Shown piece after piece: positions 26,301 to 53,400 of a stretch of DNA of 64,000 nt (its first letter is position 1; every line of letters starts with the position of its first letter). The position numbers were made by a program, and so were the translations under genes. The stretch covers positions 139,311 through 203,310 of the forward strand of contig QPGO01000034.1 of assembly GCA_008632985.1 (NCBI GenBank), in the 5' to 3' direction. The DNA is from Psammoneis japonica (Eukaryota). The notes under the pieces were generated by a model. The model did no database searches. It worked only from the letters and a program-made list of their open reading frames with translations, and had not been told where the DNA came from.

Positions 26301-28336
26301 CTAGCGGCAATGTCTCACCCGCAATCTGCAAAGCGACTCCAAACACCCGAGAGCAGACGTTTCCTTCAATTCCAAAACGGTATCCTTCTCGGGTGGTTGT
26401 AATGAGACGTGGATATTCATTTCACGTACACACACTTCTTCGGCCATTTCAGCTAGAACCTCAAAGCGTTTCTTACGATCGTTATCAATGACCTCCAATC
26501 GTTGACGTACCATCGACAAGGCAGGTCCCGACGCGACGGCGATACTCATTTCAATCTCAGCTTGACGTAAATTCTCGGATAACGACGCAAACGCGTTCAG
26601 CGATGCGCTGTTACCACTCTCATACTGTTTTCCAATCTCGACAGCAAGTTCACGTTGTCTCTTTACCATGTCATACCAATCTTGGTGGTGCGCACAAAAC
26701 AGTTCGACATCCAACTCGTAGCACCCCTTGATAACCCAAGTAGCAATGTCCACGTCACCCTTCTTTTCAGGCTGGAAAGAACCTCGGTTCTTGCACAGCT
26801 TCCCCAAACACTGCAGTTGTTCCATCAGGCTATCGAGCCGCTTCTGAATTGTTTGATTTGTAGTCATGTTGTTATCACTCACAGAACCAAACGGATACGT
26901 AGAGGATGATCGTGCCAAGCTTTCTTCTCTGGGGACGCCTTGAAGATCCAACAGCAATGGCCGAATCCCGGTGGAGGTTTCCGGGCCTGCCTTGCGACAA
27001 AGGAGGAATTTCAGCCGCTAAACAAGCAACGCAAAAGTCAGAAGACCATCTAAACAAGAACGTGAAACGCAAGCAACATGTTGGTGTGACGTACCCGAAG
27101 AGTCTCTTGCAAGCAAGGAATTTCCTCAGACAGCAACACACCGGGCACAGGTTTCAACCTAGCTCGCTTGGAGTCTAAAACACGGGCCAACTCGGTAAAG
27201 GGGAAAATTGCCTCAGCCATTTTCACTTCGAGCTCTTCGCAATGCTGTTCCAACGTAAGTGCTTCAACAAGAGAAGGTGTTTCGAGAGTACTCTGAATAA
27301 AGGCATTCACCTTGGATCTCTTGGCTTCAAGCTTGTCGCGTTGGTCTTGAAGGGCAATGTACTCATCCACGAGTTCTATAGGCGGTGCGCGTTGCACAGT
27401 CTGATGAGCTTCAAGAAAGGCTCGAAAGGGTGCTCTGTATTCGCACTTGACAAGATAGAGTCGTTTCGACACGACCGCATCCGCTTCAACTGCGCACTTG
27501 AACTGATGCAGTCGCATGGGAATATCTTCCTTCAATAGGCCAGCCAAGAGACGTGCCTCCCTTTCACACAGTGGACCCAATCCGGAAAGAGCTACTGCAG
27601 CTGATGTTGTGGCGTTTATGTTGCTACCAGCAGAGGTCCCGTGATGAGAAACCGCCGCGAAGGAGTCAACAAAGAGATCTGAATAGAATGCATGCTTTGT
27701 TAAAGTCCGCAGCAAACGTTGACATGACAAGAGTATATCATCAGCCCACACATAGTCCGGACACTGCAGCCTCGGGGATTCCCAACAATCTTTGGCGTTC
27801 AGACTCGTTTGCTTGTCTCTACCGCGTCCTGTTTCTGCCGCACGGATCGACTCAAGTACCCCGTGCGCTATACCCTGACTTCCCACTCCCAAAAGGGCTG
27901 AGGATGTTGCTGAGGATCCACTATCTGTTCCATAGTCGTTTGGATTCGCCAGGTTTGCCGACTGCGCTAACCGATCTTGAGAAATTCGTTCAATGGCATC
28001 GCTTGCAGCGTCGCAGCAGAGCCTTGCAAAGCTTTCCGATGATTCAGCCATACGTCGGACTTGTTGTGACCGCGGGGACGACGATTCTTCCTCTCGAAAC
28101 AAAACTTTCAATAACGACTGAGCTTGTTCGTTAAGGTCAATCCAAGCACACAAAAGAGCATTCGCAGAACAGACCGTCGCTGTCAATTGTCCTTCGTTGG
28201 CCCGATACAGAGCGACGTCCAACAACGTGATTAATCCAGGAACCGCTACCAAATCCAACGGACACTCCTGACTCTCTCCTGGAGATGAACGACTTCGAAA
28301 GAGCATGGAAAGCATATACGAAACGAGAGCAGTCAT
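26301..28336 (-). CDS. Hypothetical protein; intron 27018-27094
   Basis: The 428-aa and 218-aa ORFs join in frame across a GTACGT...TTTAG intron (ETLR|RLKFLLCRK...). Normal composition, no recognised domain. Confidence 0.7.
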
Positions 28337-30488
28337 GAAACCGGCGTGTCTAGTTGGCGTAGCGTCATGAGCGAACGTCCGGAAGTCTTTGTGGTGATCG
28401 ATGCATGAGAGTGTTGAGGGTGGCGGGCTGCGCCTGTTGCCCTCTCATTTCTATTACGTTTTTTCTTTTTTATTATTAAAATTTCCTTTTCAATAGGCAG
28501 TTTTAGTAACGAAATTCAAACCAGCATCTGTCACATAAGAACCCGTTGTTGTCGAAAAAGAATTCCCTGTTTAGTTGCAGATCCTGTTCTGGGTCCATCG
28601 AAATCGCCACTGATTGATGTGTGCCACCGGCTCATGCTTCTCTTCCAAATCCTTGTGTTTTCTCCTGCTTTGTCTTCTGGCAGTTCTGTCACCAGCCCTT
28701 CATTGAAAATCAGGTTTTGCTGGTCGTAAGGAGCAGAAGCCAACTCGTCCTCCCCTTCGTTTTGTGCTGCTGACCCAAGTGACATGGCCAGATTTGAGCT
28801 TCATCACATTCGCCATCACCATGCCAGTGCCAATGCTGCCCTTGCTCTGCTTGTTGTGGTCAACTCTTCATCAAAAAGCCAGCCACCACACCAGGTTGAC
28901 AGAAGAGCCCCCCCTCCCCAGCTGCTGATGACTTTCACACTTTGGATCACAGTCGATGATGCTGTTGCCCTCGAGGATCGTTTCGCTTTCCACAGCACCG
29001 GCAATGCTGTTGCTGATGGCCACCTTGACATGCACTTGATGAAGATTGAGCTTGAGGGAAATGAAAAAGGACTCTTCTGACGATGACGCAGCCGTGGCGC
29101 TGAATTGAACGCCACTGCAGGGCCAGTCCGCCTTGGCAACACGTTCACTCAGCTCCCACCAACCCGCACGTGCAAAGGCATGATCGTCGGCTGCGAAAAA
29201 CGTGTTGCCAACCAGACTGTGACTCCCATGATGGGAGCCAGAGCGAGAGCCGCCACGGTCGCCACAGCAAACAAAGCGCTCAGCAACGCCAACAAACGAA
29301 AGCGAGCAGGGCATTTCATGATGTTTGTGTAAAGAATGAGCAGCTGCAGTTGCAGTTGAGAGTTGTGCACTTCTTGAAAATCGCACCGGAACCAGGATTG
29401 ACAAGAAGTGAACAACAACACACCACGACTCCAAAATGCACTTTGTGCAACAATGCGGGTGCGAACTCGCTTTCCACCGCCAGCCAGTCATCCACAAAAT
29501 GCTCAGAATCGATCTTGTCAACCGTTCTGACGTTGATCGAGTGTCTCAAAAAATTGAGACACGTCATCAAGAATTGGGTGATGGGGCTTTCTGACACATC
29601 AGCATCAAAAGCACTGACACACCGTGCCTTTCATTGACCTTCAACTTCCTAAATGCCATTCGGAACTTCACCCGTCATCTTCGCGAAGTCAGGACCAAAA
29701 TGACACGGATCCACTTGGAATCAAAACCGCATCGAAACTTTGATGGTCAAAAGAGAGAGATGCATTTTCTTGATGTGAAAAGAGTGGTTTTGGCAACCGC
29801 AAAAAACAAGGCACTTGCTCCACTTGTGCACTGGTGGTTTTGCCACTGCCTGTGGTTGGTTGAGAGGCTCCTGTTTTTGCCAAAATGAGGGGCTGTGCTG
29901 CGGGCTCACACCACACATGTGCAACAGAGTTGGAGAGCTCTGGCATGTGTGCTGTGTCACTTCCAGGGCAAACAAGGATGAGTTGGAGTGTCTTGGGACA
30001 CTTCTTGGAAAGATCCAAGAGAAGAAGCCTGCTGGTGGGGTGCCTGTTCCAGCTCCAGGTGATCTGCTTTTCATCACACTAGATTTTCTGCGCAGTTTTC
30101 AGTGCCAGACATTTTTGTCTCCACCCGGCAGAGCTTCCACTTTTTTAATTTTGCAAACATTGATTGTTCAAATGATGCCATGTGTTTGTGATGTTTTGGT
30201 GCTCATCTGCAACAAATGAGGTGCATGTTGCATCACAGGAAGAATCGTGTCAGTTGGCATTTGATGTTTTTCTGCCAATGCGCAGAACAACCCTGACTTC
30301 CATGAACATGTGCCATCCACCCAACACACACACCAGCCACAATGCAGCACACCGCTGTCACCACTCCACAAGAGCCCCCTCTTTGATCTCACTGTTGCAT
30401 GGAACCGTCTGCTCTTTTCATTTCAAAGTTGTGTCATTGTCATCACAATGTGATTGTGGCTCCAAAGAGTTGCTGTTGTTGTGGATGA

Positions 30489-31194
30489 CACCATCTCTTT
30501 GCATTCTCTTGTTTCGAATTTGGCAAGTTGATTTGTCGTGGTTTTTTTTGCACGTCGTGTCTCCGTGCGCATGCATTTTTCTGGTTGCTTCTCACATCTC
30601 ATTTTATGGTTGTTTTTCACCAGGGCCTTCGGAATTTCTGCAAAACTCAAGCATTTGCCCAAACATTCTCCGAACAACAGTTGCTGCTGGAACAAACTTG
30701 TCTTGGTTTGTTTTCACTGTGACGCTTGCTGTTTGCACTTTTCAGCATCTAGAGCTGCCTTGGAGGCTGCCTTCGTGGCAACTGACATTGGCCCCCTCTC
30801 TGGAGTGCATTTGTCGCACAAGCAGGAGCTCACCATCTCTTTGCATTCTCTTGTTTCGAGTTCGGCAAGTTGATTTGTTGTGGGTTTTTTGCACGTCCTG
30901 TCTCCATGCACGTGCATTTTTCTGGTTGCTTCTCATGTCTCATTTTATGGTTGTTTTTCACCAGGGCCTTCGGAATTTCTACAAAACTCAAGCATTTGCC
31001 TGAACATTCTCCGAACAACAGTTGCTGCTGGAACAAACTTGTCTTGGTTTGTTTTCACTGTGATGCTTGCTGTTTGCACTTTCCAGCATCTGGAGCTGCC
31101 TTGAAGGCTGCCTCTGTTCATCCGCATGATGACTTTTGTGGTGACTGACGTCAGCCCCCTCTCTTGAGTGCTGCATTTGTCACACAATCAGGAG
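30489..31194. repeat. Tandem duplication, 342-bp period, two copies
   Basis: caccatctctttgcattctcttgtttcga occurs at 30489 and 30831, and the copies stay collinear for ~340 bp. Confidence 0.95.
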
Positions 31195-31199
31195 TGCAA

Positions 31200-34100
31200 A
31201 AGCAGTGCAATCACCATGGACACATTGGCCAAAGCAGCCTCCCAGCAGTGTCCCATTGGTGGCAGTTCCCTTCAAGCAAATGACAACTCTTCCAGCACAT
31301 TGAAGGTTTCCTTTTGCGTCCAGCATCGCGTCTGGGCACTCGAGGAACATTGCCCGCTGCAGGGCAAAGCCAAAACTTGGCACACTGTGCCTCTCCAAGA
31401 TGCAGTTGATCCCCTTGCATGCCCACAAGGTCTTGTAGATTTGAGCATCTTGACCACGGAAGATCATGAAACCAAGAAGATGAGCCCTCTCTTTTGTGTT
31501 CTTCATCACAAGAATGGTTTCGATGGGTTCAACAGTGTCAAAACACGGAACATGTTCCGCAACACTGTTGTCCATTGGTTTTGTGTGAAACATTCAATGC
31601 TGAGAATCGACCACAACTAAACCAACACATCAAGGACAAGAACCAGCACTCTCTTGATGTTGGCTGTGGCGCCATCAGTGATGTTGATGAGGGACGCCAT
31701 GCAGGACAAGCAAAACATTGCTGCTGTTTTGATGCACCGTGTCAAGACAAACACAGGCCTGCTTGTTGATCACGTCCATGTGACAGAATCTCAGGTTGTG
31801 GAGGTCGGGATGGGTGATGAGAGACAATCAATCATGCCATCAAGTCAAGGCATTTGTCCTTTTTTGTTGGACTTGTCCAAGCCATTTGCTGTGGTGTTGT
31901 CAAGAAGATGGATGCATCATGTCTTCATTGTCAGAAGATGTCGAAGTCTCATCACATGGGAGTGATGGGTTTCGAGGACATCACAGACACCATGAGTGAA
32001 CGTTCTGACCTGGCGGACATCCGCAAGCACTGGGAGTGGGATCATCTCATGCAGAATGACAGAGGCAACACGGTTGCCCTGTGTGCAAAGGAGATGATTG
32101 CTCCAACAATGAGCTCTGCAATTGTTTTGGCATTGCCTCATTCCAGCCCAGAGCATCAGAACGTCACAACAGAGATCTGCAGTGATGAAGACTTTTGGAC
32201 TTCCTGAAGGAGCATGCATTGCTGATCATTCGTGCTTTGCCAAGCACCAATTCCACAAATCATCTTTTGTCAACATTCAAAACCCAGAAACGCACGATCA
32301 TGAAAAGTTGACCAAAGATTTAAGCTCAATGAGTGGCTGCCTTTTGGCAATGTTGTGCACAGAAGTTGGTGGCAAATGAAGTCTCCAAATTTGATGAAGA
32401 GCCATTTTAAATGTTGGCTTTGAAGGGGTTGCATGTCAAGTTCTGCCATGAAATGAGACATCCTGTTTTAACTGCGAAACAGCACTGGGGTTCAATCAGC
32501 AACCATTGCTCTGTTCCAAATGAAATCGCTCAGAGGAAGCAGGTGGACAAAAAGCTGCATCAAAAACCATGCCTCAGCTGTGAGAAGTTGAGGAAGGGCA
32601 ATGTGGATGACAGCGATGATTGTGTTTTTCACAACAAGCATTGCAAAAAGGAGAAGCTTGAACAGTCGGATGATGACATGGAGGAAGATCCCTGCATTGC
32701 CAAACTTCCCACCGACGTAAAATGCAAAGTGCCCACAAGCTGCATGATTGGCTGCCGGAAGGTTTTCTCATTTGGACCATGCAACCCTGGTGAGACACTG
32801 CCATCAGAGGCATTGTTTGACATTGTTGCAGGTTGGTGGTGCAACCACATGTTGCGGATTCCCTCTGGTGGTGAAGACAAAGACTTTAAGCTGCAATGAT
32901 GCTCTGAGTCAGTGGAGGCCGTCATCAAAGACAAGCACATCTTTGAAGTTCACTTCCCTGCCAGACCAAGCAGGAAGGGCTGCTGCAAAGAGCTGCTTGC
33001 TCACCTTGCTGATTGGTGCAAGGCAGCTCCAGGACTTGCATGGCACAAGTTTTGCAGAAGGATTCATTGCCATCGTTGCATGGATCATGCCAGTGTCTGT
33101 GATGCAAGGATGAAGGCAGAGTTGGGGGAGGAAAAGGAAGAGGGGAAGGAGGGCACTGAAGTGGCGGATGACCTGCAAAAGGCTGAGGCTGGCACTGCAA
33201 GGTTTCAACTGTGAGACAAAACCAGGAGGAGCAAGATCAAGGTGGGGCCATGGATGAATCGACTGAGGAAAAGGAGGAAGATGATGGTGTGCGAGACAAA
33301 ATCCAGGAGGAGCAAGGTCAAGGTGGGGCCATGGCTGAATCGACTGAGGACAAGGAGAAGATGATGACCAGGAAGAAGTTGACAAAGCCAAGGGTGCAGA
33401 AGACTCAGCACTTGGAGACACAAAGGCAGAGAAGAGGGAGAGAGTGGGAGAAGCGTGTCACAGACATGATGTGAAGCTCATGAAGAAAGACACAACTGGA
33501 GTGAGCAAGGATGAGGATCTCATTGGCCTTCACAGCTCTGGGCCAAAACCAAAGGCAAAAGGAGCCACTTCATGGCATTGGTTGAGCAAAGAGCAGCGAC
33601 ACCAAGAAGAAAGGGATCAACTTGATTGTGAGTGCAAAGATGCTCAAGTGATGTTGTGGGTTAAAAAACTCACTTGGGTTGATCCAAGTTCATGGAACAG
33701 CAGGCGCCAGCATCCTGGTGATCCAAATTTGCTTTCAAGAAAAAAACGAAGGTGTCATGTTGTGGAAAAAATGGTTTGATGTGCAACACAATGAAATGAA
33801 CGGCCATTCCATGGACATGCATGTGTGGCCCTCATCGCACGTGCCGAACACAAACCAAACGTTCCCATGCAACTCAATCGAAAATGCAGGAACAAGATTA
33901 AGAACAAGGTGCAATCAATTTGCAACCCACCACAGATTGCCAAACTGAAGAGATTGACTGAAGCGGAGATTCAAAAACTTCCACCTGTTGGGCAGGGTGC
34001 TGATTTCATTGGCTGCAGCTTGGAGGGGAACTGTCCCATGTGTGCAACCCCAGATTGGGCTGAGTGCAATTTCAAGTTTCGGTTTCCAGATGTGTGGAAT

Positions 34101-34620
34101 GATTTGAAAGTGTTGAAGCCATTGGATGGTTTTTGCTCCTTGCCAGAAGGAAACGCATTGATGTCATTGAACAGCAACTTGCCGACGAGCGGCCCACCTG
34201 TGAAATTCCTGCAAGGACAAAACGACACTTGCATTTTTTTGTCTGTCCCTGGCCAGTGTTCTTGATTGTGCTGGCGACGTGGAAATGAGAGACTGCATTG
34301 CTTCTCACATTCAAACATCTGCCAACTGTGCCAACGCTGACAACAAGCACATGTTGTTTGCAAAGCACATGTTGAATGGTCATTTGAAGGGAAAATTCCC
34401 ACCTGCAAACTCAAACATTGGGTTTTGCAGCAGTGTGGATTGAACAATTTCCTTGGAAGCAGGTGGTGAATTTGATGTGACGACCTGCAATGATGACTTC
34501 ATAACTTTGTGCCATCTTGTGAACAACCACTGCATTGCCTTGCACCATGGTTGGATCTTTGATTCCAACCACCCTTTTGCATTGCCAGCAAAGGACATCA
34601 AGTGCTTGAATTGGTGAATT
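31200..34620 (+). pseudogene. Decayed large TE-associated ORF ending in a possible papain-fold (C39-like) domain
   Basis: Broken frames with protein-like text, an acidic tract with an ~80-bp tandem repeat (33211-33365), and C-terminal QGQNDTCIFLS...NHCIALHHGWIFDSNHPFALP...LNW. Confidence 0.45.
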
Positions 34621-34649
34621 GGGAACAAGGAACATGAGGTGCAACATGT

Positions 34650-37600
34650 GGCAAAAAAGCATCTGCAACAAGTGTTCATGTTGCACCAGTTTGAACTTCC
34701 AAGGGTGGTGCAGCAGCAGTTGCATGGAAAAAGGAAAGCTTTTGTGTTGGGTGGTTGATCTGGTCACACAATGCAAAGTGACAATCACAGTGTTCGTTCA
34801 TTTTCCCATTGCCATTTTGTTCATCCAACTCATCACTGTCGCTGTCTCCTGCCGCACTCTCATCATCCTCTGCAGTGTCCTCCTTGTTGTCATTCTCTCC
34901 CTCCCACTCATCACGGCCGAGTCACTTTCTCGGCATCATCCATCCCATTTGCAACTCCACATGAACCTGGAGGCACCGCAATCATGTCATGCAATTCAGT
35001 CGCTTCTCGCTGCCGCACCAAGATGCTCGATCCACTGGGACAATGGTCCATGCAAATTTTTGACGGCAAACAAGGGAAACAAGTCATGTTCATCTCGTGC
35101 TGCCATGTGTGCCCCAACAATTCCTTGACCGCAGGTGAAACTGCAGCCTGCGCCCAGCAAGTTAACTTGTTGCGCCAGCAAGGTTGAGCAAGACCCGAGC
35201 CTCGACACGCATTTTGTTGTGATCTCTCCCGGACATTGGAAACATTTCTGGACGATCTGAACTGGGAAGTTGTTTTGTTTGGTGATTTTAACACGGATTT
35301 TCGAAATGACACTGACTCACTGGCCCACTTGGCGATGAGATTCAAGCTCTCCGACGTGATGTGCAACAAAATGCAGGATCTTGAATTCGCCACCCATCTC
35401 CGCGAATCCCGCCGAACTTGATTGTGTCCTTGCCACCTCAGGAGCTCTCCAAGCTGTCACAAAATGCGGTTGTGAATCGTTCGGACATAGAATTTCCTCA
35501 GATCACCATGCCTGCCATGTGGACTTTGACACAGAGTTGTTGTTTGGCAATTCTTCCGCCGCGCTCCCTCGCCCATCCCATCGAACCCTTCTTGCAAAGT
35601 CTTCGAAGCATGTTGCGACTTGCCTCGAAGCCATCGGTCCAATGCTCAAGAGCCGCAATGTGTTAGATCGAAGTGCAGCACTCCTTGCATCTGAAGAGCC
35701 GGACCATGCCCTTGCAGAACGGTTGGACTGCGACATGACACAATTTTGCATCTCCGCAGCCAAACATTGTCGGTGTCATCATGAACCAGAGTGGTCTCAA
35801 AAACTTGTGGACTTGCGCAGCAAAGTCTTCATCCTGTCTCGCCTTCTTTCTATGTTCAAAAACAAGACCACCTTTGTGGAATCGATTGTTCATGAAAAAT
35901 GCAAATTAAAGAAGTCGTTCCTTCTCCCAACTGCTTTGGAGGAATGTCAGAATGCTCTCCAACGTGCCCAGTCCGAATGTAAAAAAGTTGCTCGTGACAG
36001 TCTACATCACCGTGAACGCAAACGTGATGCTCGGATTGCAGAACTAGATCTAGAAGGCACCAAGGCAGCAACTGAAGAGGCAAAGATTCTTTGGAATGTC
36101 AGATGTGCAGAAGAGATGTTGCGAGTGTTCCGAAAAATCAACGCGTTTGAAGATGAGGATGGTTCAAGTGTCAGCAAAGCACAGGTCCCGGCTGATCCTC
36201 TAGAGGATCCCAAGACATGTGAACATTGGGAAACAACAGACGCTCACAAGATGTCGCTGCTGCCCTGACAGCACAGAATCAAAAACATTTTGGACAAGCT
36301 CATGGCACTCCTCCGACCGTTCCTCCTCTGTTGATAGATCCAGGGTACGAAGGCAACACCATCATGGTGGATCTTGTTCTTGACGGCAAGTGTCCCACGT
36401 CCGGATTGACAGAAGCTGCGGCTTTACTGATTGAGCATCTCCGGCGACGAACCCCAGTGTCAGCATCCAATTTCCTCACACCTGAAGAAGCCAGTGGGAA
36501 ATTTAAGTCGTGGACAGAATCCACCTCCACTTCGATCAAGTCCGGTCTTCATTTAGGCCACTTTAAGGCCATGCATTCTAAGCACATGTGTTCTTCAGAA
36601 ACGGATCCACAAGGTGATCCCACCATGAGAAGCACTGAATTGGATGAAGTCCAAGACAGCCTGTGACAGATCCGCTTGAATCTGCTAAACTGCGCACTCA
36701 AATGGGGACATTCTTACGACAGGTGGTGTGACGTGGTCAATGTCATGATCTTCAAAGAGCCAGGCAACAACAAGATCCACCGTCTCCGCGTGATCCACAT
36801 GCATGAAGCGGACTTCCAGTTGATCACCAGTGTGAAATGGCGGGCCCCAGCACAACATGTGGAACAACGCCGATTGTTCAACCCAGGCATCTGCGGTGCT
36901 CAAACTTTCCTGTGTGCTCAGACTCCTGCATTCCTTGAAGTTTTAATGTTGGAGACATCAAGGGTTTCTCGCAAGACGTCAATCACGAGTGATGATGATT
37001 GCACCTCATGTTGCGACAGGAATCTCCCGGTCCTCATGGCGATCACATCAGACAGTTTGGGTGTGGAACCATCAGCAGTGGCTGCAGCAATCAAAACTGT
37101 CCATCTGGCCAGGTGCTGGTTGCTCACCTTGTCAGGTCTCTCTGAGGACTTTTACTCACACAACGCAGAATGCCCCATCTGCGGTGCTGGCCAAGGCAGT
37201 GGCAACTCCCCTTTTTGCTGGAACAACTTGTGCAGCATTCCATTCGATGTCTTCGACTCCAAGGCCAATGGAGCGTTCTTCAAATCACCAGACAGGTCTC
37301 ATCAGCTCAACATCTGCACAAGAGGACACGCAGACGATGCGCCCAAGCAGACGAATGACTTCAGAGCATCACCTCAGCCTTCCGCAGAAGATTTAACTCC
37401 CAAATTGCAGCACAACAACCAACTCTGGTGCGACTTGCTCCACGCTGGCGGACACGAACTGGAACTCCCCAAGTGTTCCTTTCACGCTGTCGATTGGGAC
37501 TTCTCTGAATTTGGTGAGCTGAGCCTCCGACCGTGTGACCAAGACATGTCTGTGGAAATTTTCTCAGCCGATTGCTCCACTTCCAGACACAGCAAGCAGC

Positions 37601-40600
37601 TGTTTCCCTTTGCTCCGCATGAAACACTGGGACACCACCCTTCCCCAGCTGGGACGCCAAAGAAACAGCAACAAGTGCTCCAAGCCAAGAGTGATGGAAA
37701 AGCGTCATTCATTCGGGCTGTCCCTCTAGACCGGACCGAATTGTGGAGATGCCACCATGCATGTCATTTGCCGTCGATGTCTTTTGTTCTTGCTGACTCT
37801 CGCTTTGCTTCCAAAGTGCTGAAACAAATGCAGCAGCGCACTGTGAGAGTCATGTTCGCCAAATGTGGTTGCAACAGGAATGCAAAGTGCTTGATGCCAC
37901 ATGGCCCTCAATCTCTTGGTGGCAGTGGGTTTCATTCTCTTGACATGGAACAGGGAATTGCCCAAATGCAGCAGCTGTTGAAACATTCTCGAGGCGCACA
38001 GCATCTTGTTCAAGATGATCAACCATGCGCTGCAGCTCACATTGCAATTGCATGGAATCAGCTGCATTTGGGCACTGGGGTCAGCTTCCTCAGAGACGTT
38101 GACACTCCTCATCCACATGACCAGTCACTGTGGTTTGCATCAGTTCAGTCTTTTCTGCAGAGCATTGGAGGCTGCATTGCATTGTCCCAAGATGGAGTGC
38201 TCCCCTTGCAGAGAGTCAACAATCAGTTTTTAATGGATGTTGCTCTGGAGTCACAAGAATTCACTTGAGAGAAATCCGATGGATCAATTGTTGCCGCTTG
38301 TGTCTTCGGGTCCTGACAGTCTCAGACATCACTCTGGCAGACGGATGCTTCTTAGACGAATCCAAAGTCTACGGCGATCCCACTTGCCTCAGCAGTGTCA
38401 GTGCCCTCAACAACGTCGAACAGATTGAACCTTGCCACCATGCATGGAGTCCTTGGATGCGGTCATGTGAGTTGTTGTGTCATCAAGACTCAGTTCGTTT
38501 GAAAGCTCCCTTGGGAGACTGGCTCGTGCCCCCTTCTGAAATGAGGATGCAATGTTCAGCGCATTGGTCTCCCAAAGAATCACACCCACACATTCGATCT
38601 CCATCAGGATTTGACATTTTTCCAGTCCAGGACACTGTTGCTGCGTCGCTGCGCCAAATCGAAACGGTTCCCTCCCCCTCTGATTCTTCATTCCCGGTTG
38701 AGATTGTCTCCACAGACGACAGCAGATGGAAACACATTCCTCATTGCCTGAAACTCTTGGTTGAAACAACTTCACCTGCACCTGATCTATTCACAGACCG
38801 CTTGCAAGCATTGCCTCCCTGGGAGTCCTCTCTCTTTTCAGACATTGATTTCCACATTCCCGTTTGTGAACTGATGGACTGTTTTGCATCAAGTCGCCTG
38901 GTTGCGGGCAGCGACGGATCCGCACTTCATCATGATGCAACCTTCGGATGGACGATTGCATTCAATGGCAGACCCTTGGTGGATTGTGCTGGTCCGGTGT
39001 CTGGTCGTTTGCCATCATCCTGTTGAGCTGAGGCTCACGGTTTTCTCTCCCTGATTTGGTTCATCTATCGTCTGATGGAGTTTTGCAAGATGTCAATGTA
39101 TGAAGGTGTCAACAACTGGTGTGACAACAAGGCCTTGGTCTGTGTCCTTTCCAGATTGTCTTCCAGCCACCTGTCCATCAACCCGTCGCCACAAGAGCAT
39201 TCCGACAGAGACTTTTGTCTGTGACAACATGATGCCAATGTTCTTTCATCTGACTGGGATGTTGTCAATGAAATGCACTTAACGCTCAAAGCCATTCCTC
39301 AGGCTCTAAATCCTTCTTCCCCCGGGCAGGCACCATCCACAGCTTGGGCAAAAGGACACCAGGATGGACAAGCTCCAGTGGAGACCCTCCCACTGAATGC
39401 ACAAGTCAATGTACATGCAGATGGGTTGGCAGGAAGATGCCAAGGACAACATGATGCAGACACAATGGAGGTGCTTCCCTTTCCCCATTGTCAATCATGC
39501 CTTTGCCTCACTGATGGAATGGTCACTGCAGGAATGAAATCCATGGTCAGACATGCCACAATGGCTCCTGCTCTCTTGGCATGCATTCGGGAAAGAAACG
39601 ATTGGGATGAATCCATCACAGAAAAGATTGACTGGAAGGTCCATGCAACATTGGTGTGCAGGTGCTCCAAGAAACAAGCATCCACGGTTAAACTCATCCA
39701 CGACCTCCTTCCAACAAACAAGATCACTCATCAGCACAATCCTGTGTGGCCACATCACTGCCTCACGCGCAAACACCCTGTGGAGGATCGCGACCACATT
39801 TTAAGATGCCCTGCCAACGAGGCCTGGCATCGCAAATTCCCACAGGGCGGGCAAAAACACTGTGACAAAATTGACAAAATGCCACCTCTGCACGATCCAC
39901 TGCTGACTTCCCTTGAGACATGGCTGAGAGGTGAGATGCAGCATGAATCAGACATCACCCCAATGCTGCGAATGCCATGGAAAGCCCAGTCAGAAATGGG
40001 ATGGCGACAAGTTTTTAACGGACGGCACTCTGCCCTTTGGAGTGTGTTTCAGGAGATGCATCTTCGTGAGACGGGTCTGTTGGAGAAATGTGGGAAAGAG
40101 AATCGACCTCCTCCAGTGTGGGGAGTGCAGACAGGAACTTGCATTTGGAAGTCCTGGTGGGAACTGTGGGAAGAACACAATCAGGAGGTTCATGGTCATG
40201 ATGCAGATTCAAGGAAATCATCTTTACGACGTCAGGCAGAAGCTGAGCTCACAGCTGTTTGCAACAAAAGACAGGATCATTTGGCCAAAGACAGAGAGGT
40301 GCTGCTGGATTCAGCAGACAACCACATGACCCACTCTACACTGCGGATTGTGAATTGGGTTGCTGTGGTTAAACCACGTCCAAAAGAAAGCCGAAGAAGG
40401 CAAAGCGCGAGGCGCTTTGTGGTGCTCGCTCCATTGCAAGCTATTTTGGATGGGTGTCATCTCATGGTGACGCCCCTTCCAGCTGATCCCAAGAAGCTTC
40501 TGCCACACTTGACGGTGCACTGGAAGTGTGGGTCAGCCGGCGCCCGCTTGGCTGGCAAAGGAGTGACAGCACTTTAAACACAGATCTGGTTTTTTTTTTC

Positions 40601-42200
40601 CTCCCACTCGTCAGTTTTGCTGCTGTTGTGTTCCTCCACCTCGTCCAAACAGCCCTCAAAACAATCCATTGCCTCCCACTGTTGGATGGCATCCAGAATT
40701 CCTTCATGCTCGTCATCCTCAAATGATGTGGATCAAGAAGTGAAGCCTCATTCCTTTTGCATGCACTTGGCAGTTCCAGAGTGGCTGAGGGTTCATTGAG
40801 CTCAATGTTGGCAATTGCAATTTGCTTGAGCAACACTCTTGTCTCACATTCATCAGCATCACCGGGAGTGCACCATCCTCTGGCCCTTGGAACAGGGTTG
40901 AGACATGTTCCCTTGCAATCCCATTCACTGGCCTCAACAGTTGTGGGTGGGTCAAACTCTGTCCACACCTCATCCTCCTGTGCTTTGTGGGGGAGTTCAT
41001 CCCATTGCAGCAGACAAAAGCCCTCCTCAGATTCACAAGACAATGCAGCATGGCTGTTTAGAACAATTTCCTTGGCCATTTCCTCAGTCAGGAAGTCCAA
41101 CACAGATTTGTCAACCAACTGCACCTTGTTGGCGTCACTCTCATCTGTTTGAATCACCTGACACACTTGCCATTGTTCAGCCCCTCAAAATGGGCCACAG
41201 TTTGCAAGCTCAGTTGCCACCTGCATGTTCTGGCTGCTCTGTTGGCTTGACGTGTTTTTCACCCAAGGCCATTTGAGCTCACCCAGGCAGGCTTCACAAG
41301 CACAAGGAATTCTTTGCATGGCAACCCAACCAATGGGGAAAAGAGGTTCAAATTGGAAATGGTGCAAGGCTCTGATGCCACAATGGCGTGTGTGCACTTG
41401 CACCAATCCAGTCAACTTGACTTTGATTAAAGAGCCAAGAACTCCATCAGCTTCCTGCAGACAATGCACCCTTTCTGTTGACTTTTGAAGGGATTCCCTC
41501 TTGGCATGTTTCCTGTTGCCAACTGCACCAAGAGCATTTTTTTCTTTGTGAGCAATTTGCAACATTCCTTGGCATGACTGTGTGCGACTACAATGCCATT
41601 GTCATCCATGACCAAAGCTTCAGGTCCAATTTTCCCATCCTCGTCATTGACTCCTGCAGCAGTTGTGGACTGCATTTCTCAATGCATGAGTGATTCAATG
41701 CAGGCTCCAATGCCATCAACCTTTCCTTTGCCATGTCCAGGTGCTCCAATGGCATGGTCAAACACAATGTTTTGCATTTGTGCATAAACACAGACAACAA
41801 GTGCAGCGCCAAAGCACATCAGCACTGTTTGGCACAACCACAGGTGTGATCCCAAATCACAAGCCATGCCTGACACAGGTTGTGGGATTTTAACCAGATG
41901 ACAAACTTTTCTAAGTGAGCATGGGTGGTGGTGGCATCTTGCTTGCTGAAAGAGTCAGAGAGATGCGCACGATGTGTTTTCTGAAGCACATTGTCAACCA
42001 TGATTGCATCGCAAACTCTTCCTTCAATTGACAATGTTTGGCGTGGGCCCCTTGCTCTTGCAAATGCCAAGAAAATGATGACAGCAAAAGATGGAATGTC
42101 CAGCACACATTGCTGCGCAGCATTGGGCATGCCAGCATTTTTTGCAACAGCCGTCTTCTCAAACAGCCTTGGCGTGCGGCTTTTCGCAGCTCTTGTTCAA
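34650..42200 (-). mobile_element. Degenerate Sola2-like DDD transposase gene interrupted by the LINE
   Basis: Motifs TLSIEG, HLSDSFSKQDATTTHAH, IWDHTCGCAKQC*CA and FDHAIGAPGHGKGKVDGIGA. The acidic C-terminal frame continues across the LINE. Superfamily call rests on the recalled DGC..QY / HGKG..DG.G signature. Confidence 0.65.
34914..40599 (+). mobile_element. 5'-truncated Ambal-like non-LTR retrotransposon (APE endonuclease, RT, RNase H, CCHC) flanked by a 14-bp TSD
   Basis: APE: PGGT, DPLGQWS, LFGDFN, SDHH. RT: MIFKEPGNNKIHRLRVIHMHEAD, TSCCDR, ICGAGQGSGNSP, GHADD. RNase H: GSDGS, SSC*AEAHG, WCDNKAL, AKGHQD. Zinc knuckle: EDRDHILRC. TSD cctcccactc(a/g)tca at 34900-34913 and 40600-40613. Confidence 0.9.
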
Positions 42201-45120
42201 GCAGCCACTGCACACTGACTTCTGGCAGCTTTCAATCAAAGCAACATGCTGCACTGCTGCACATTCTCCTCATGCCAGCTGCACTTTTCTCTTTCTGTGT
42301 CACAGCCTTGCCCAAGTGTTGCCACACTCTGACCTGCGCTGCCTTGCCAAACATGATGAGCAGGAAGACTTTGTTTGTGCAGCAGCACACACACTGAGCA
42401 GGCCAGCAGTCAAGAGCTGAGCAGCAGAGCAGCAACCTTGGTTGGCAGCAAGCCTCTTTTGTGCCCACTTGTGGGAGATTTGAGACAGCATCAACAAAAG
42501 GTGTTGGGTGGAGCGCTGCTGCAGTTTTCTTTGTTTGCCATCATCGCGAGCATCAAATTCTCTCTGCCAAGCAGCACACAGCAATGTTGTGTGGACTGCT
42601 GTCTCTGCTGTTTGGACTGCATTGTGGTTTTTCCACCCTCTCAATCATGGACCAGTTGGTGCCTTGCCTCCCAGCATGAGCACTTGAGCTCAAAATCATC
42701 ATCTTTGCAAAGTTGCAAACAAAATGATGCAAATCAACTTAGAATCAACAGAGTGCATCACAGTCAAGAGAGGCACATCTTGATGAGAGAACAACACCAG
42801 CTCTTTGGCAAAAAAGGGGCAAGACAGCTCACTTGTGTGCCAGCATTTTGCCACTGTCTGTCATTGGGAAGGGTCATTTTCAACAGTGATGCTGCTGGCT
42901 GTTGGCTCCATGCATGAAGGAGAGGGCTTTTGGCATGGTGCACAGCTTCTTTTGAGCTCTTGCAAAAAAAAAGCTGCAAATGGGGCACTGCTCTTTTGCC
43001 AAGAGCAGATCAGAGGGTTTTAGAAGCTCAAGAAGATCATCCTCTGCCAGATGATCATGGCCAAAGTCACGACCAAAATGAAGTGTGGACCAACTCAAAA
43101 TCAACAGATTGCATCATGGCCAAGAGGAGAGGTGCATCTTGACAGGAACAACAGTGGCTTGGCAAAAGAGGAACAAGACAGCCCACTTGTGTGCCAGCAT
43201 TTTGCTGCTGTGTCTGTTTTTGGGGAGGGCCATTTTTGTCAATGAGGCTGCTGGCTCCACACATGAGGGAGAGGGTTTTTGGTGTGGCACACAGCTTCTT
43301 TTGAGCTCTTGCAAAAAGAGGCCTGCATGTGGGGCACTGCTCTTTTGCCAAGAGCAGAGATCAGAGGGTCTTGGAAGCTTGGGAAGATCCCCTGCCAGAT
43401 GACAACAACTTCTTGTGGGACAAATGCAAAAGAAGCCTGAGCTGCAGCAGAGCAGCTTTGGCATCTCTCTCAGCAGCAGCAGCAGCAGCAGCAAAATTGA
43501 AGGGAGGAGATGATGTTTTTACCCCAGCTTGCAAAATGCAAGCAGCACCAAGAGTTGGAAAAATGACGTGGCACAGATTGAGAAGTGAGTGCTGGAGTTG
43601 AGTCAACGTGCCATTCGTGACAAAATGCCATGCCCAAAGTCCAACACATTGCCTTTGAAGGAGCCCTTTGTTGCTGCTTTTTGCAACAACTCAGCATGTC
43701 AACAGCACAACTCCTCATGCTCCCCTGTGTCTCTGGCAGTTCTCAGCAGTGTGGCTGCTGTTCTGTCAAATGCCAACAAAATTGTGATGGCAGCAACAGA
43801 CAGAGTGTCCAGGGCACATTGCTGCACACCATTGGGTGCATTGGCATTTTTTGCACAGACCATCTGCTCAAACCTTGGGAGCTTTTGCAGTTTGTTTTTA
43901 ATTGAAAGCTCTTGCAAACTTGCCCCCAGCTTCCAAAACAAGATGCTGTGCTGCCATGCATTCTCATGCTGCCGCTGTGCTTTTCATTTCCTGTGTTGTG
44001 GCCTTGTTCCAAAATGTTGCCACTCCCTGCCACACCAAACATGGCTGGGCAGACTTTGTTTGTGGCACACACACAAAACAGCCCTCACCCTGCACTGAAC
44101 AGACCAAGGGTCAAGAGCTGAGAGGCAACAGCCACCTTGATGATCAGCAGCAAGCCTCTTTCATTGTTGCTGGTGGGGAGGTTTGACAGCATCAAGGCAA
44201 GGTGTTGGGCCCACTGCACTCTGCTTCTTTGTTTGCCATCATTGCCAGCAGCATTGAGTTTGCTCTGCCAAGCATGCAGAGATGTTTGTGGAGGCCAACT
44301 GCCATCTCTGTTTGGACTGTGTGCTGTGGATTTTGCACCCACCACTCAATGGACCAGACAGTGCCCCCCCCCCCCCCGTGGGTGCTTGAGCTCCGCTTCT
44401 TGAGTGTCATCCAATGTGTTGCCAGGAGAGCAGGCAAACAGCCTCAATTTCCCCAAGTTCCTCAATGTCATCTGACCAGTCCCCAGACAACACTGGGCAA
44501 TGACAAGCTTGCAGCACAGGTGATTCTGGTTGCAGCAGTGTCAAGACTGCCCTGGCAAAGGACACTGGCTCTAAGGTGTTGGTCAAAAATTGCACAAATT
44601 CATCAAAGTTGGCAGCCATGCCCTCATCAAAATTCTGAAACAGGTGCCCCCGAATCCACTGCTGCCATGGCATCAAATGCATCAGAGCACTGAAATGCTG
44701 CTGCCACACCTTGAACATCAGATTCTCTCATCTGCAATGCAGGTGTGCACACAGCACACATGAGGAGTCCATTCAGCACATTGCTGCAGTTTGCCAGCAG
44801 AGGGCAAAGCACAAGTGCACCACATGTTTTGTGTGTTTGGCATTTGTCATTTTTTCATCAGCTGGCACACCATGCAGGCTTGTGTGTTGTGTGAGCACTG
44901 ATGTGCTGCTGCCTCAGTTGCTGCTCTTGCAATGTGCACCTTGGTGTGTGACAGATGACAAAACATCAGATTCTCTCAGCAACAATGTTGGTGCACACAT
45001 GAGTCCTTCGAGCATGTTGCTGCAGTCTGCTGAGGGGGGCAAAGCACAAACATGCCAAAAATTTTGTGCTTGGCGCATGTGCAGCTTTCCATCAGCTGGC
45101 ATGTGTGTGCTTTTGCACCT
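42200..45120. repeat. Cluster of diverged internal duplications
   Basis: ~357-bp tandem pair starting at 42732 and 43089. 42390-42690 resembles 44090-44400, and 44715-44880 resembles 44963-45110. Confidence 0.8.
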
Positions 45121-45819
45121 TCAGCAAGGTCTTCATTGTGGCCATCAGATGATGATGTGCTGTTGCCATTGTTGCACCTGCAATGGAAGAGAAAGTGTCT
45201 TGTCCAAGAACTGGAGTTGGCCCAGCCAGAGTCAATTTGGAGGTGCTGCAAAAGACACCACCAGTCTGCTGTGGAGGGCTCACAGCAGTCATGAACATGC
45301 ACATTGGCAAGGTGCTTGTGCACAGAAGCTTGAGGTCAGCACATGAAGCTCAGCAGCATCTTAAACAGCAATGTGGCAACCAGGTGAGCATCATGAAGTT
45401 TGTCTTGCTGTCACACTGTGGGCAAGAAACAAAAACTGATTTTTGATTCCAAGCCTTCAGATGTTGCCATTTTTCTTCTGTGTGTCTGGCACTGCTGCTT
45501 CAAAACCCAGCATGACTGGCCTGCATGCGGGCAATGCTTCAAGTTGTGATCTGCAGTCAAACATCCTTTCTGACAATCCCACAGGGCATGCTTGCAACAG
45601 AAGGGAGTTCCAGTGTCATGCACCAGTTTGCATGAACAACATTTCTTGGACGTGTCACTCAGCGGCATCCAGTGCAGCATTGTTGGTCATGCCATTTTTG
45701 GTCAGCAAGATGGTCATCTTGAAGAGTGGTTTTAGCAGCATCTTGTGAAATGGGGGGTCAGCACATTGTCTTGGCATGTGGCACTGAAGATTGCTCGGTG
45801 TTTCTTGGTGCTGCTGCAA

Positions 45820-46750
45820 AGGAACAAACCAGTGCCATCTTTCCCACTGAGGATGTCTGGAGCCAATTTGTGAAGATGGGTGCATGCCCCCCTGGGGCAT
45901 TGATGACCAAATCCAGCTGCACAGTGATGCTTGTTCTTGCACAATTCATGAAGTCGCAAACTTCTGAGCGAGGCTTTTGCAAGTTGTCCGCAAGCTTTGC
46001 ACAGCAATCATGCAGAGCATTGCCTTGGCTTCCTTGCCAAGCAGACAATCACATGATGTGACAAATGGTGTGAAGTGACATCATTGGTGAAGACAAGGCT
46101 TGAGATTCTTGCATCTCTTTTGCTCATGATCCGCCAGAACCTGTTCTGGTGTCTTGGGTTGATGTGATGTTGCACCCCACTTCTGGAGCACCAACATCAA
46201 CCACCACATCTGGCTTTTTGCCCCAGATTGCACTCTGGAACAACTGGAATGTTCTTGGAGTTGTCAACAGGATGACAACTTTGCTTGGGTCTGATGTTGT
46301 GCAGAGCAAGAAAGAACTTCTGAGCTGCTTGCTTGAAATTTTCCCGCTGCTGCTGAGTCATCAGCGCACCAAGAGGTGAGTGGGCATTTTGGGGAAATGA
46401 GCACTCATGTCTTGAGCTGGTTGCAGAAGAAGCCCCAGTCCATGTGGCTGCTGCAGTGTCATGCAGCCAACCCCAGCGGATCAACTTGGGCATTGCCACC
46501 TTCCCTGTTGCTGACTGAGCAAGAAGGCCACCTTGCGCCAAAGTGGCTGGGGACAACTGGAATGGCCCAATGATTGCAACAATTGAAAGCAGCAAAAAAT
46601 GGCCAAGCATGTCTCATGTCGTGAGCAACATCAAGGCCCTCCTGCCACTCAGCTCATCATTGAATCCATTGGGTGCATTGATGGGAAAACAGAAAAGTGC
46701 AGTCGTCTTTGAACTTGTGCTGCTCCCTGTTCCCAGAGCACATGCATCGC
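45820..46750 (-). mobile_element. Second, internally deleted CRE-like RLE retrotransposon remnant
   Basis: Fragments PINAPNGFNDE, RHAWP..AFNCCNHWA, REGGNAQVDPLG, KLADNLQKPRSEVC and SRHPQWE(K)DGTGL. Same C-terminus as the 15200-17480 element. Confidence 0.75.
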
Positions 46751-47137
46751 ACAAATGCCTCCTCCTTTGATGCCTGCTGATTTTTGTCTGGCACCAAGAG
46801 CCTCTTTGCTGTGAGAGCCCGATGGGCTGCCGCCCATGGGGGAGATTCGTTGGCTGGCCAGTTTGTGAACATGCATCATGCATGGCGCCTCCCTGAGAGG
46901 CGCACACCTCTTGGCAGTGTTTTTCTTTTTGCACGCGTCTGCGGTTGCCGTAAAGTGTACGTAGGAATTAGTAATAATTTTGAAAGTACCAAGTTCCACG
47001 AATGTTCTACACACGAACACATGGTATTAATTCTACCAAGCTACACAAAAATGATAGTGATTGAGAAATTTAGCAACGGTCACGACACAAACAAAATCTC
47101 TCGGAAAGCGTTTCCTTTCGCGCTCGATTTTCGGTCA

Positions 47138-47429
47138 CAACTCGTCGTCTCGCACGATGTGTTGTTGTTTGCCAAGCCGGAAGCCGCAATCTCCAAGGAT
47201 GGCTCGCCCTTCCTCTGGATTGAGAGCTTGCTCTTGTTTGGCATTCCACAACTCATTTTGCTTGATGGTGTGTTGTCTCTCTTTTTCAACTCGTCGTCTC
47301 GCACGTTGTGTTGTTGTTCGCCAAGCTTGAATGCCGTAATCGCCAAGGATGGCTCGCCCTTCCTCTGGATTGAGCACTCGCTCTTGTTTGGTGCTCCACA
47401 ACTCATTTTGCTTGATAGCGTGTTGTCTC
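47138..47429. repeat. Direct repeat, 150-bp period, two copies
   Basis: caactcgtcgtctcgcacg...ccaaggatggctcgcccttcctctggattgag...gtgttgtctc at 47138 and 47288. Confidence 0.95.
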
Positions 47430-51689: not shown

Positions 51690-53400
51690 TCGCCCAATTG
51701 CAAACCAGAGTTCTTTGACAACGGCAACAACGACAGCAACCACAGCACAGCTGCAGTCTTTCTGGATCTGGACATAAAAATTGGAGAAGATTGGTGCATT
51801 GTCAGCGTGAACATGTCAAAAACCAGTGGACCTCTTTTTCTGCATGCCTCATTTAACAAGCATCATTCATGGCAACTTGTGATGAGATTCTGGATGCAAA
51901 ACTCTGACACCGACACACCATGATTTGCCAATGCTGCAGAAAAGTTTGTGATGTGCGTGCACACCACAACAACACGCTGGCTCAGCATGATGATTCTTCG
52001 ATGCGGCAGATTTGTGACAGCACACTCACAATCACGAAAGTCAAGCAATGCCCCAATCAAAACCCATCTTGACCAACCAGAAGGACAGCAGGTCTCACCA
52101 TGCATTGAGCTGCTGTCATTGGCCAATGGGGTGAAGTCTTTCACCGCCATGGCAGGTTGTCGATTTGCAAATTTGCAACCACACGCAGGATCCACGTGAA
52201 TCCTCACAACAGCACATGCTCTTGTTTTTCAAATTTTGGGGAAAGGGTGCACTGTTGTGAAGTGTGCAGAAAATTGCGCATGCAAAAAATGCACTGAAAA
52301 TGCCCCAGACCAACGGGCTGCGCAAATCTGGGAAACATGAAGAAAAACGAAGGTGGGTCATGTGCGTGCGTGAAGTGCAGCAGACTGCACACGTGCAAAG
52401 ACACACACATGTGAGTGAGGAGGACAAAGTCAAAACCAAGTTCAAATTGATGACAACCAAAAGGAAACCAAAAACCGTGCACAACAAAAAACAGATTTCG
52501 GCGGGTTCCAGTCCCAGGCGGGACTCCGTGTGATGTTGGGCACGCACAATTCTGCGCGCAAGCTCCGCAGCAAATTTGTGCTGCAACAAAAACATGAATG
52601 ATCGCCAACAGAAAAAGAGGCAATTTTACGAACGCATCTCCTCCTTCACACTTGCAGCACATCATCAACAGTTTGCCCGGGCACATTCTAGAGACATCAA
52701 AGAACACACCCAGCGCATTTTCATTCTCACAAATTTTGAAAACAGAAATCCTTTGGCTTCGCAAAACAGGGAGCATGAAACAATTTCCCAGAATGCATCA
52801 CGTAGAAATGCATGTGCGCGACACACGATGCGATCCAAAAAACTGTTGATGTCACAGTGCAGCAGCACGAGGTCCCACCTGCAGCTGGAGCACGTCTTTC
52901 AACCCCAACCAAATCAAACATTGATGAGACATCAGATGAAATGCACAAAACAGTTGCATTTTGTTGAGCACTTTTGCTGGCATTTTTAAATTCTGCCTGT
53001 TGACAATTTTGAGAATGCACATTAAAAAATGCACAAAGGAAAGTGGAGGCCGCCCGCTGCACCACTGCGGGGCCTCGCTCTGATGTTCACACCCCAGCCC
53101 ACACTGCTGCCACTTTGCTTGACCATCTCTCACACCTTCTCTTCTGCTCCTTGTCAGACTCCACCATGCCAATGCTCCCCCCCCCCAAACAACCATCTGC
53201 ATTGTTCGATGCCTTCTCATTTGCGACTGCCTTTCCCACATGGCTTGCTTTTTGCTTTGTTCTTGGTGGCTTGGGCAGCCACTTGGACAAGTCAGCCAAC
53301 CATCCACTGCTCCCTCCCAGTGGGGCATTCAGAGCATGAGCTGTGTTGTAACCTGAAACTCGACGAATCACTTGCTTCACCCCCTCATCCAAACCGTGCA
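51690..53400. repeat. TpA-depleted decayed repeat island, family unassigned
   Basis: TA is rare and mostly ttaa/ctag, while CG is partly retained. Only spurious Cys/His-rich ORFs. Confidence 0.65.

Follow-up and report, generated by a model that had tools for sequence, protein, structure and literature searches.

What removed nearly all conserved tyrosines from a retrotransposon in a diatom genome, when most other conserved residues were retained? We addressed this question in a 64,000-nucleotide stretch of Psammoneis japonica DNA (assembly GCA_008632985.1, contig QPGO01000034.1, positions 139,311 to 203,310 of the forward strand; hereafter the window). Positions 34918-40400 of its plus strand hold what homology indicates is a dead, nearly full-length APE-type non-long-terminal-repeat (non-LTR) retrotransposon, or long interspersed nuclear element (LINE). 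A preliminary description, made from the letters of the sequence, had proposed that the motifs of this element were changed by transitions at TA dinucleotides. Our analysis reveals that, since the split of the element from its relatives, TA was lost to TG or CA, through A:T to G:C changes at TpA on either strand. We consider it likely that this dead LINE lies in an 18-kb repeat block that was TA-erased in place, perhaps by adenine deamination at 5′-TA as a form of genome defence.

Tyrosine codons in a degenerate LINE

We used the open frame at 36667-38268 as a HMMER query and recovered 2952 relatives, with P0001 (1934 aa) as the top match (42% identity, E = 4.1e-126). By tblastn, residues 100-1917 of P0001 map to 34918-40400 in four collinear segments in frames 1, 2, 1 and 3. 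The element has three frameshifts (near 35415, 36245 and 38262, placed by tblastn of relatives) and four in-frame stops, all TGA (35185, 36664, 39024 and 39222). As a reference set we took the 48 full-length relatives (≥1500 aa) among the matches listed, and we called a codon conserved if it was covered by at least 12 of the 48 with at least 60% agreement, which yielded 369 codons.

The LINE retains 294 of these 369 codons (80% consensus identity). Of 17 conserved tyrosines, one is kept, while nine are now Cys, five His and two Phe; among the other residues, 293 of 352 are kept (Fisher p = 3e-11). Residue types besides tyrosine are 44-100% retained. Eight intact relatives passed through the identical pipeline kept 13-16 of their 16-17 conserved tyrosines, indicating that the tyrosine effect is not made by the method. 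Along the path of homology, we counted six tyrosine codons, compared to 62.7 expected from 38 intact relatives.

The preliminary description had read seven altered motifs against motif forms expected for the family. All seven are indeed present in-frame at the codons concerned: HEAD (36802-36813), SCCDR (37006-37020), ICGAGQG (37177-37197), GHADD (37324-37338) and CGCNRN (37864-37881) in the reverse transcriptase (RT) region, and SSC*AEAHG (39015-39041) and AKGHQD (39348-39365) in the C-terminal region. The two closest relatives confirm the expected forms. P0001 and P0002 read IYGTGQG, SCYDR, YEAD, SSYRAE[GA]YG and IKGHQD, and of the two, P0001 alone reads GYVDD and CGYNRN; in the xVDD box, 46 of the 48 relatives have F instead of Y. 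At the positions in question the homologues have Tyr, Thr or Val, not the Cys, His or Ala of the LINE. ICGAGQG is encoded by ATC TGC GGT GCT GGC CAA GGC. Since the RT catalytic box is mutated (GHADD, compared to G[FY]VDD in relatives, with ICGAGQG in place of IYGTGQG), this copy is inactive. A recount also gave the tyrosine numbers reported for four open reading frames (ORFs), with none in 35360-36268, two in 36667-38268, one in 38121-39026 and none in 39225-40577. We measured these frames from stop to stop (302, 533, 301 and 450 aa), and the shorter lengths given earlier begin at later start codons.

Codon use shifted in the same direction. Per 1000 codons, TAT plus TAC fell from 34.4 in relatives to 3.3 in the LINE, ATA from 16.2 to 0.5 and GTA from 10.4 to 0.5, while TGT plus TGC rose from 17.5 to 43.8. 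The 75 replaced conserved codons comprise 23 TA-type changes (16 to TG and seven to CA), 10 CpG-type changes, eight other transitions, 17 transversions and 17 codons with multiple changes. With identity to the nearest relative no higher than 42%, much of what is not TA-type is probably ordinary divergence. Thus the suggestion that nearly every deviation is a single transition at TA held for 11 of the 12 motif changes on which it was based, but not for the element as a whole. The twelfth change, the stop at 39024, stands for an arginine kept by 40 of 41 relatives and is CpG-type (CGA to TGA). Conserved arginines (CGN) have become Gln, His or stop at seven of 26 sites in the LINE.

It had also been proposed that the process leaves long frames open. 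A change of TA to TG or CA cannot create a new stop, and in principle this part stands. The LINE itself is interrupted by its four TGA codons and three frameshifts.

The LINE has the domain order of its relatives, with APE endonuclease, RT, RNase H-like and zinc-binding regions. The endonuclease segment (34918-35415, frame 1, TGA at 35185) corresponds to P0001 residues 100-267 and overlaps the Exo_endo_phos match of P0001 at residues 159-297. A linker segment (35417-36244, frame 2) is entered through the frameshift near 35415 and aligns by tblastn to P0001 residues 268-545. The RT segment (36247-38262, frame 1, TGA at 36664) follows the frameshift near 36245 and is homologous to members of an alignment, A1, that bear RVT_1. 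The C-terminal segment (38268-40400, frame 3, TGA at 39024 and 39222), with the RNase H-like and zinc-binding regions, follows the frameshift near 38262. The five LINE frames of the window matched no Pfam family at E ≤ 0.1, and a PDB sequence search with P0001 gave no match. The ORF at 36667-38268 aligns over its full length to members of A1. Among the 26 members, Pfam recognized Exo_endo_phos in 12, RVT_1 in 13 (best 5.6e-9), RNase_H in four and zf-RVT in five, and the A1 profile matched the LINE endonuclease chain 2v0r_A (E = 0.0011).

At the 5′ end, the alignment begins at residue 100 of P0001, and the copy may be 5′-truncated. At the 3′ end, tblastn alignments of relatives stop at ~40400-40468, short of the stop codon of the frame. 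The region 40401-40599 of the plus strand contains the end of the open frame (TAA at 40575-40577) and then a run of ten T residues at ~40590-40599; in our reading of the sequence after the stop, this run stands in place of a poly(A). The terminal TAA lies within TTTAAA and is a surviving site of the TTAA type. On the minus strand, a 240-aa open frame (40465-41184) overlaps the 3′ end of the LINE, with no homologue among longer proteins and no Pfam match. The label "Ambal-like" used in the preliminary description is a tentative one; Ambal is listed by Repbase as a non-LTR clade (PMC4455052).

Loss of TA in the element and its flanks

If the tyrosine codons were lost through a process that acts on DNA at TpA, their bases should have changed more often than the same bases in other codons. 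At conserved sites, A to G at the second codon position affected nine of 17 tyrosine codons but one of 88 Asn, Lys, Asp, Glu, Gln or His codons (p = 7e-8). Similarly, T to C at the first position was found at five of 17 tyrosine codons and one of 41 Phe, Trp or Cys codons. The effect also crosses codon boundaries, as five of eight conserved A-initial codons that follow a T are now G-initial, compared to one of 39 otherwise (p = 2e-4). The scarcity of TA extends to each of the three codon phases of the LINE. These data agree with the earlier proposal that the changes are concentrated at ancestral TA. They also uphold its choice of a DNA-level process over codon reassignment, in view of the cross-codon changes, the scarcity in all phases, the near absence of GTA and ATA and the erasure of the flanks described below. 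The coding effect is that tyrosine (TAY) becomes Cys or His and GTA (Val) becomes Ala, while an A-initial codon that follows a codon ending in T becomes G-initial, giving Thr to Ala, Asn to Asp, Lys to Glu, Ile to Val and Ser to Gly.

Dinucleotide frequencies revealed the extent of the loss. In the LINE body (34918-40400, delimited by tblastn to the 48 relatives), the observed/expected ratio (o/e) is 0.11 for TA, 0.56 for CG, 1.52 for CA and 1.60 for TG, and the GC content is 0.50, compared to a median of 0.48 in relatives. Of ~242 TAs expected, 39 remain, so that ~84% are gone. Since CA and TG are both raised, both strands were affected. For comparison, we drew intact relatives from 80 metagenome loci encoding relatives of the LINE. 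In 72 of these loci an open frame reaches 500 aa or more, and the medians for these 72 are a TA o/e of 0.67 (range 0.44-0.84), a CG o/e of 0.95 and 3.4% tyrosine. By this sequence comparison, TA loss is not a trait of the LINE family. In only one of the 80 loci does TA o/e fall below 0.35 over a stretch of 1 kb, but the search patterns required intact Y/H/F motifs, and the count is therefore uninformative on how widespread the process is. Two intact metagenome relatives, L070 and L072, have a CpG o/e of 0.34-0.38 with high CA and TG and only mildly low TA (0.44-0.53). CpG decay can thus occur without TA erasure in other hosts.

The loss extends well beyond the element. A TA-erased domain spans ~28575-46950, with TA o/e of 0.00-0.23 per 500-bp bin inside and 0.43-0.76 outside, or zero to seven TAs per bin within and 12-29 beyond. 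Its edges are sharp to ~100 bp, as TA positions end at 28572, with two stragglers after, and restart at 46951. The domain includes ~13 kb of erased flanking DNA around the LINE, in which we found no coding homology. Depletion is specific to TA, since AA, AT and TT have o/e of 1.13, 0.99 and 1.13 in the region.

The block also bears ordinary decay of CpG to TpG or CpA, which has gone further in the flanks than in the element. CpG o/e is 0.26-0.86 in the LINE and 0.03-0.25 in the right flank (0.03-0.4 in the flanks overall), with similar TA loss. The two signals are separable, because at 28575-29600 TA is almost gone (two in ~1 kb) and CpG is kept (o/e 0.5-0.8). Thus, TA erasure is distinct from the CpG decay that also marks the block.

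Erasure reshapes the stop codons of the domain. On both strands of 28501-47000, we counted 127 TAA plus TAG triplets and 895 TGA triplets, compared to 683 and 790 in TA-normal DNA; total stop density decreased only from 71.9 to 55.2 per kb. The shortage of TAA and TAG results in many spurious ORFs, with 47 that reach 80 aa or more in 8.5 kb. In a separate Pfam search with 47 ORFs of the flanks (28.5-34.9 kb and 40.4-47 kb), only two sub-threshold chance matches were returned.

Direct repeats, tandem or nearby and with 68-92% identity, occur in the domain or at its edge (30489-31194, 33210-33366, 42053-44393 and 47138-47429). Most of the differences between tandem duplicates in the block fall on YR dinucleotides. 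We considered TG-versus-CA differences between copies (34 in domain pairs within 28-48 kb, one in a control pair) as proof of ancestral TA, and dropped this argument because ancestral CG gives the same result.

Erasure (TA o/e < 0.25 per 500-bp bin) also marks six smaller blocks located between host ORFs, at 1-1500, 6501-9000, 11501-12500, 15501-17500, 52001-53500 and 56001-57000; 31 ORFs in these blocks had no Pfam match. The host ORFs between which the erased bins sit hold TA o/e of 0.43-0.76. Their products include a kinase, a pseudouridine synthase and a BTB protein, and long intron-free ORFs are present. Among 66 relatives of the BTB protein, the two that bear an organism name point to diatoms, one being Fragilaria crotonensis and the other a truncated label, "Atthe", that we take for Attheya. 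Atlas look-ups gave Bacillariophyta clusters (0.86 and 0.92) as a lead, with Arthropoda and Chlorophyta clusters scoring equally. The LINE is the only selfish DNA that we identified; self-BLAST of the window gave nine repeat pairs, none involving the LINE, and the 64 kb contain no second copy of it. A 428-aa ORF without a Pfam match (27050-28336, minus strand) has normal TA (o/e 0.43-0.57) and lies ~240 bp beyond the left edge of the domain. Elsewhere in TA-normal DNA, a 615-aa ORF (1843-3690, plus strand), also without a Pfam match, contains internal direct repeats (2320-2790 versus 2569-3084, 72% identity).

Survival of TA according to the base 3′ of the adenine

The TAs that survive have characteristic neighbours. 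In erased DNA, 50% of surviving TAs are preceded by T and 51% are followed by A, compared to 21% and 19% in normal DNA. We therefore calculated survival for each strand-folded tetranucleotide as its frequency in erased bins relative to TA-normal bins. Survival was 0.69 for TTAA, 0.31 for CTAA/TTAG, 0.16 for CTAG, 0.13 for GTAA/TTAC, 0.07 for ATAA/TTAT, 0.06 for both CTAC/GTAG and ATAG/CTAT, 0.04 for GTAC and 0.02 for ATAC/GTAT. No ATAT was found in erased bins, compared to 97 in normal bins.

These values are described by an additive model with four rates. It lets each strand lose its A independently of the other strand, and the 3′ base of that A alone fixes the rate. The fitted rates were 2.37 for T, 1.78 for C, 0.90 for G and 0.22 for A (10 classes, Pearson X2 = 3.4, df 6, p = 0.76), and the model was better than one with a single rate (likelihood-ratio test statistic 146.6, df 3). 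When non-LINE erased bins were compared to normal bins, the rates for T, C, G and A were 2.53, 1.85, 1.01 and 0.27; when the LINE was compared to 38 intact relatives, they were 2.32, 1.52, 0.55 and 0.01. Thus erasure follows the order T-A-T > T-A-C > T-A-G >> T-A-A, with the strands independent, and the order is the same in two disjoint data sets. This 3′-base rule is new here.

Because each strand acts independently under the rule, TTAA survives and ATAT vanishes. In the LINE, TTAA was observed 13 times, compared to 9.7 expected, and ATAT not at all, compared to 24.8 expected. The rates from non-LINE DNA also predict what becomes of tyrosine codons, with 59% expected to become Cys and 37% His, and 4% to remain tyrosine. 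At the 17 conserved tyrosines we saw nine, five and one, with two Phe.

Mechanism and comparison with known systems

The erased flanks, the sharp edges and the presence of both products argue that the change occurred in place on chromosomal DNA, and not by editing of LINE RNA. The setting would be the chromatin of silenced repeats, and the agent would most likely be a deaminase acting on the adenine of 5′-TA, whose product, hypoxanthine, would be read as G. Its role would be a genome defence that runs opposite to fungal repeat-induced point mutation (RIP). Enzymatic adenine deamination at 5′-TA in silenced repeat DNA is the mechanism that we prefer, with confidence that is close to even or a little short of it.

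Could the loss instead be an artefact of assembly or base calling, in which a long-read caller systematically misreads TA in modified repeat DNA as TG or CA? Systematic miscalls at modified motifs are known in some long-read assemblies, and the technology used to sequence the window is not on record. However, the short contigs of one public DNA run (X1; 140.7 million letters in 657,387 records, mean ~214 bases) contain 63% of the sampled 31-mers of the LINE; no RNA run was listed with the sequence. As there is about one converted TA per 25-30 bases, miscalling would have broken nearly all of these 31-mers. Two X1 contigs at single-copy depth (57-60) differ from the LINE at two of 241 and four of 279 bases (1-1.5%). 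In addition, the same signature exists in an unrelated public protein record, P0118 (359 aa, from a public contig of 7686 bp), which is 42% identical to the RT frame of the window, reads ICGAGQG and SCCDR as the window does, and contains 0.6% Tyr, 5.0% Cys and 5.3% His. An artefact is accordingly the reading to which we give the least credence.

Across 28001-46000, X1 contigs and the window differ at 529 positions (442 transitions and 87 transversions). We labelled 40 of these as 12 TA-type (one of them, 31598, wrongly, as it neighbours a G to T change), 15 CpG-type, seven other transitions and six transversions, a set too small and mixed to give polarity. X1 depth goes from ~160 to ~1140 along the LINE, which would fit 5′-truncated copies; depth cannot rank the parts of the element, and we do not rely on it. 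At 28575-29600, contig depth in the run is only ~1.5-2x the single-copy level.

Three other explanations accept the sequence as real. One places the event at the RNA level, with a LINE transcript or cDNA hyper-edited from A to I by an ADAR-like enzyme and then reverse-transcribed into the genome. LINEs have an RNA stage, ADARs favour U 5′ of the edited A according to the text of a recent preprint (10.64898/2026.01.13.699255), and the scored sites show a modest excess of sense-strand A to G (16 TA to TG, seven TA to CA). Against this, the ~13 kb of flanking DNA are equally erased and the sharp edges do not match the ends of the element, CA, the antisense-type product, is nearly as frequent as TG, the 9:5 split of Cys and His is predicted by the context rule alone, and tandem duplicates in the block diverged at such sites too. 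ADARs are also a metazoan family that prefers a 3′ G, unlike the order T > C > G >> A seen here. We rejected ADAR-type hyper-editing fixed by retrotransposition because of the erased flanks and the products of both strands, and consider an RNA-level event very improbable. Similarly improbable is an origin of the pattern without any targeted system, be it through ordinary neutral decay, through GC-biased gene conversion between repeats, or through a genome-wide avoidance of TA to which old repeats were exposed for longer. TA is indeed under-represented window-wide (o/e 0.43-0.76 in genic bins), and repeats recombine. Yet the loss is limited to TA, the edges are sharp to ~100 bp, the LINE lost ~84% of its TA while 80% identical to the consensus at conserved codons, 28575-29600 lost TA and largely kept CpG, and gene conversion should not follow a 3′-base rule.

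Next after adenine deamination we rank a modified thymine, such as 5-hydroxymethyluracil (5hmU) at TpA in silenced DNA, that mispairs with G or is repaired with errors to give T to C. Dinoflagellates carry 5hmU preferentially at TpA and TpC. Sequence cannot separate T to C from A to G at a self-complementary site, and the context rule can just as readily be taken as a 5′ preference of A > G > C >> T for T. However, we know of no such base in diatoms from this analysis, which included no search for one; T to C would require a mispairing step and not a direct chemical conversion, and the near-saturating loss (~84-95%) would require a very mutagenic lesion. We regard this route as unlikely.

Several points weigh against our preferred reading of an enzymatic erasure in place. 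Only 23 of the 75 changes at conserved sites are TA-type, and the direction of change is taken from protein relatives that are at most 42% identical. The baselines for the context rule (neighbouring genic DNA and distant relatives) are stand-ins for the ancestral tetranucleotide mix, the fit to the LINE alone was imperfect (X2 = 15.9, p = 0.01), and a biased birth of new TAs, for example by C to T at TCA, could add to the excess of TTA and TAA. Run X1 may be the sample from which the window was itself assembled, and its technology is not on record. The flanks lack an identification as transposons, so that their putative status as repeats comes from contig depth in one run, a poor measure. The analysis revealed neither an enzyme nor a modified base, and no chromatin mark. 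Finally, as TA is self-complementary, A to G on one strand equals T to C on the other, and adenine deamination is just the chemically simplest route.

Several known systems resemble the process in part. RIP, in Neurospora and other ascomycetes, likewise consists of dinucleotide-specific transitions that are restricted to repeats. They too put transposons out of action, and the domains they affect are sharply delimited and skewed in dinucleotide composition. In RIP, C to T changes turn CpA to TpA, enrich AT and create stops. Here the opposite occurs, as TpA becomes CpA or TpG, GC is raised and no stops are created; because the direction is reversed (TA, CA and TG o/e and GC content as given above), we rejected RIP as an explanation for the window. 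With the ADAR (A to I, double-stranded RNA) and APOBEC3 (C to U, cDNA) enzymes of animals, our reading has in common that selfish nucleic acid is hypermutated by a deaminase of the host, and the T 5′ of the affected A matches the T/U preference that the same preprint describes for ADAR. These animal enzymes act only on the RNA or nascent cDNA of the element and leave strand-specific tracks. Unlike them, the process here affects both strands and the flanking DNA, and its 3′ preference differs from that of ADAR. CpG decay of methylated transposons through deamination of 5-methylcytosine co-occurs in the block. It concerns a different dinucleotide and the opposite base change, and it can be separated from TA erasure in space.

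The closest known process is hypermutation in Bigelowiella natans, which is known from one unreviewed 2026 preprint. Its text describes mutation-accumulation lines in which A to G and T to C changes all occurred at TpA, in two integrated viral regions, and coding sequences that are depleted of TpA, enriched in CpA and TpG and enriched for Pfam families of reverse transcriptases, endonuclease-reverse transcriptases and DDE proteins (Mettrop et al., 10.64898/2026.01.13.699255). Its authors propose an ADAT2-like DNA adenine deaminase as the defence, and the words "context", "trinucleotide", "flanking" and "CpG" do not occur in the main text (10.64898/2026.01.13.699255). As in that description, the changes here are A to G and T to C at TpA (tyrosine to Cys or His at 14 of 17 sites), with CpG-type changes in addition (10 of 75), and erasure spares host ORFs, just as only foreign DNA is affected in B. 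natans. Unlike the case described for that rhizarian chlorarachniophyte, with its integrated giant-virus and virophage DNA, the host here is a diatom and the targets are a LINE and repeats without an identification. The preprint reports an episodic rate, ~1000-fold over background, measured in mutation-accumulation lines, whereas the window holds only a historical footprint near saturation, and CpG decay accompanies TA erasure here, unlike in the B. natans account. Our full-text literature searches returned no report of such a process in diatoms.

For annotation of such genomes, these results carry a practical warning, since TA erasure gives rise to spurious long ORFs in the affected regions and makes Pfam miss the LINE. 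The LINE itself is valuable because its many intact relatives supply the direction of change, which dinucleotide statistics alone do not. It also reveals the coding outcome, in which the tyrosines and the RT active-site box are lost and the frames remain largely open. Any candidate deaminase can be tested biochemically against the 3′-base rule, under which TTAA is immune and ATAT is erased, and, if true, the T-A-N rule would be a fingerprint with which to find the enzyme and to recognize its action elsewhere. For base-editing technology, a naturally occurring DNA adenine deaminase would be of interest as well.

Hardly any natural case is known in which chromosomal DNA undergoes targeted A:T to G:C mutation. 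With a saturating footprint on the transposons of a second, independent lineage, this would become a real class of genome defence, with a chemistry opposite to that of RIP and APOBEC. It is possible, though we stop short of calling it probable, that diatoms (Stramenopila) and chlorarachniophytes (Rhizaria) share, or each evolved, a chromatin-targeted DNA adenine deaminase that would read T-A-N (N = T > C > G >> A) on each strand independently and would rewrite silenced repeats in place, except at TTAA, disabling catalytic tyrosines but creating no stop codons, as a reverse form of RIP.

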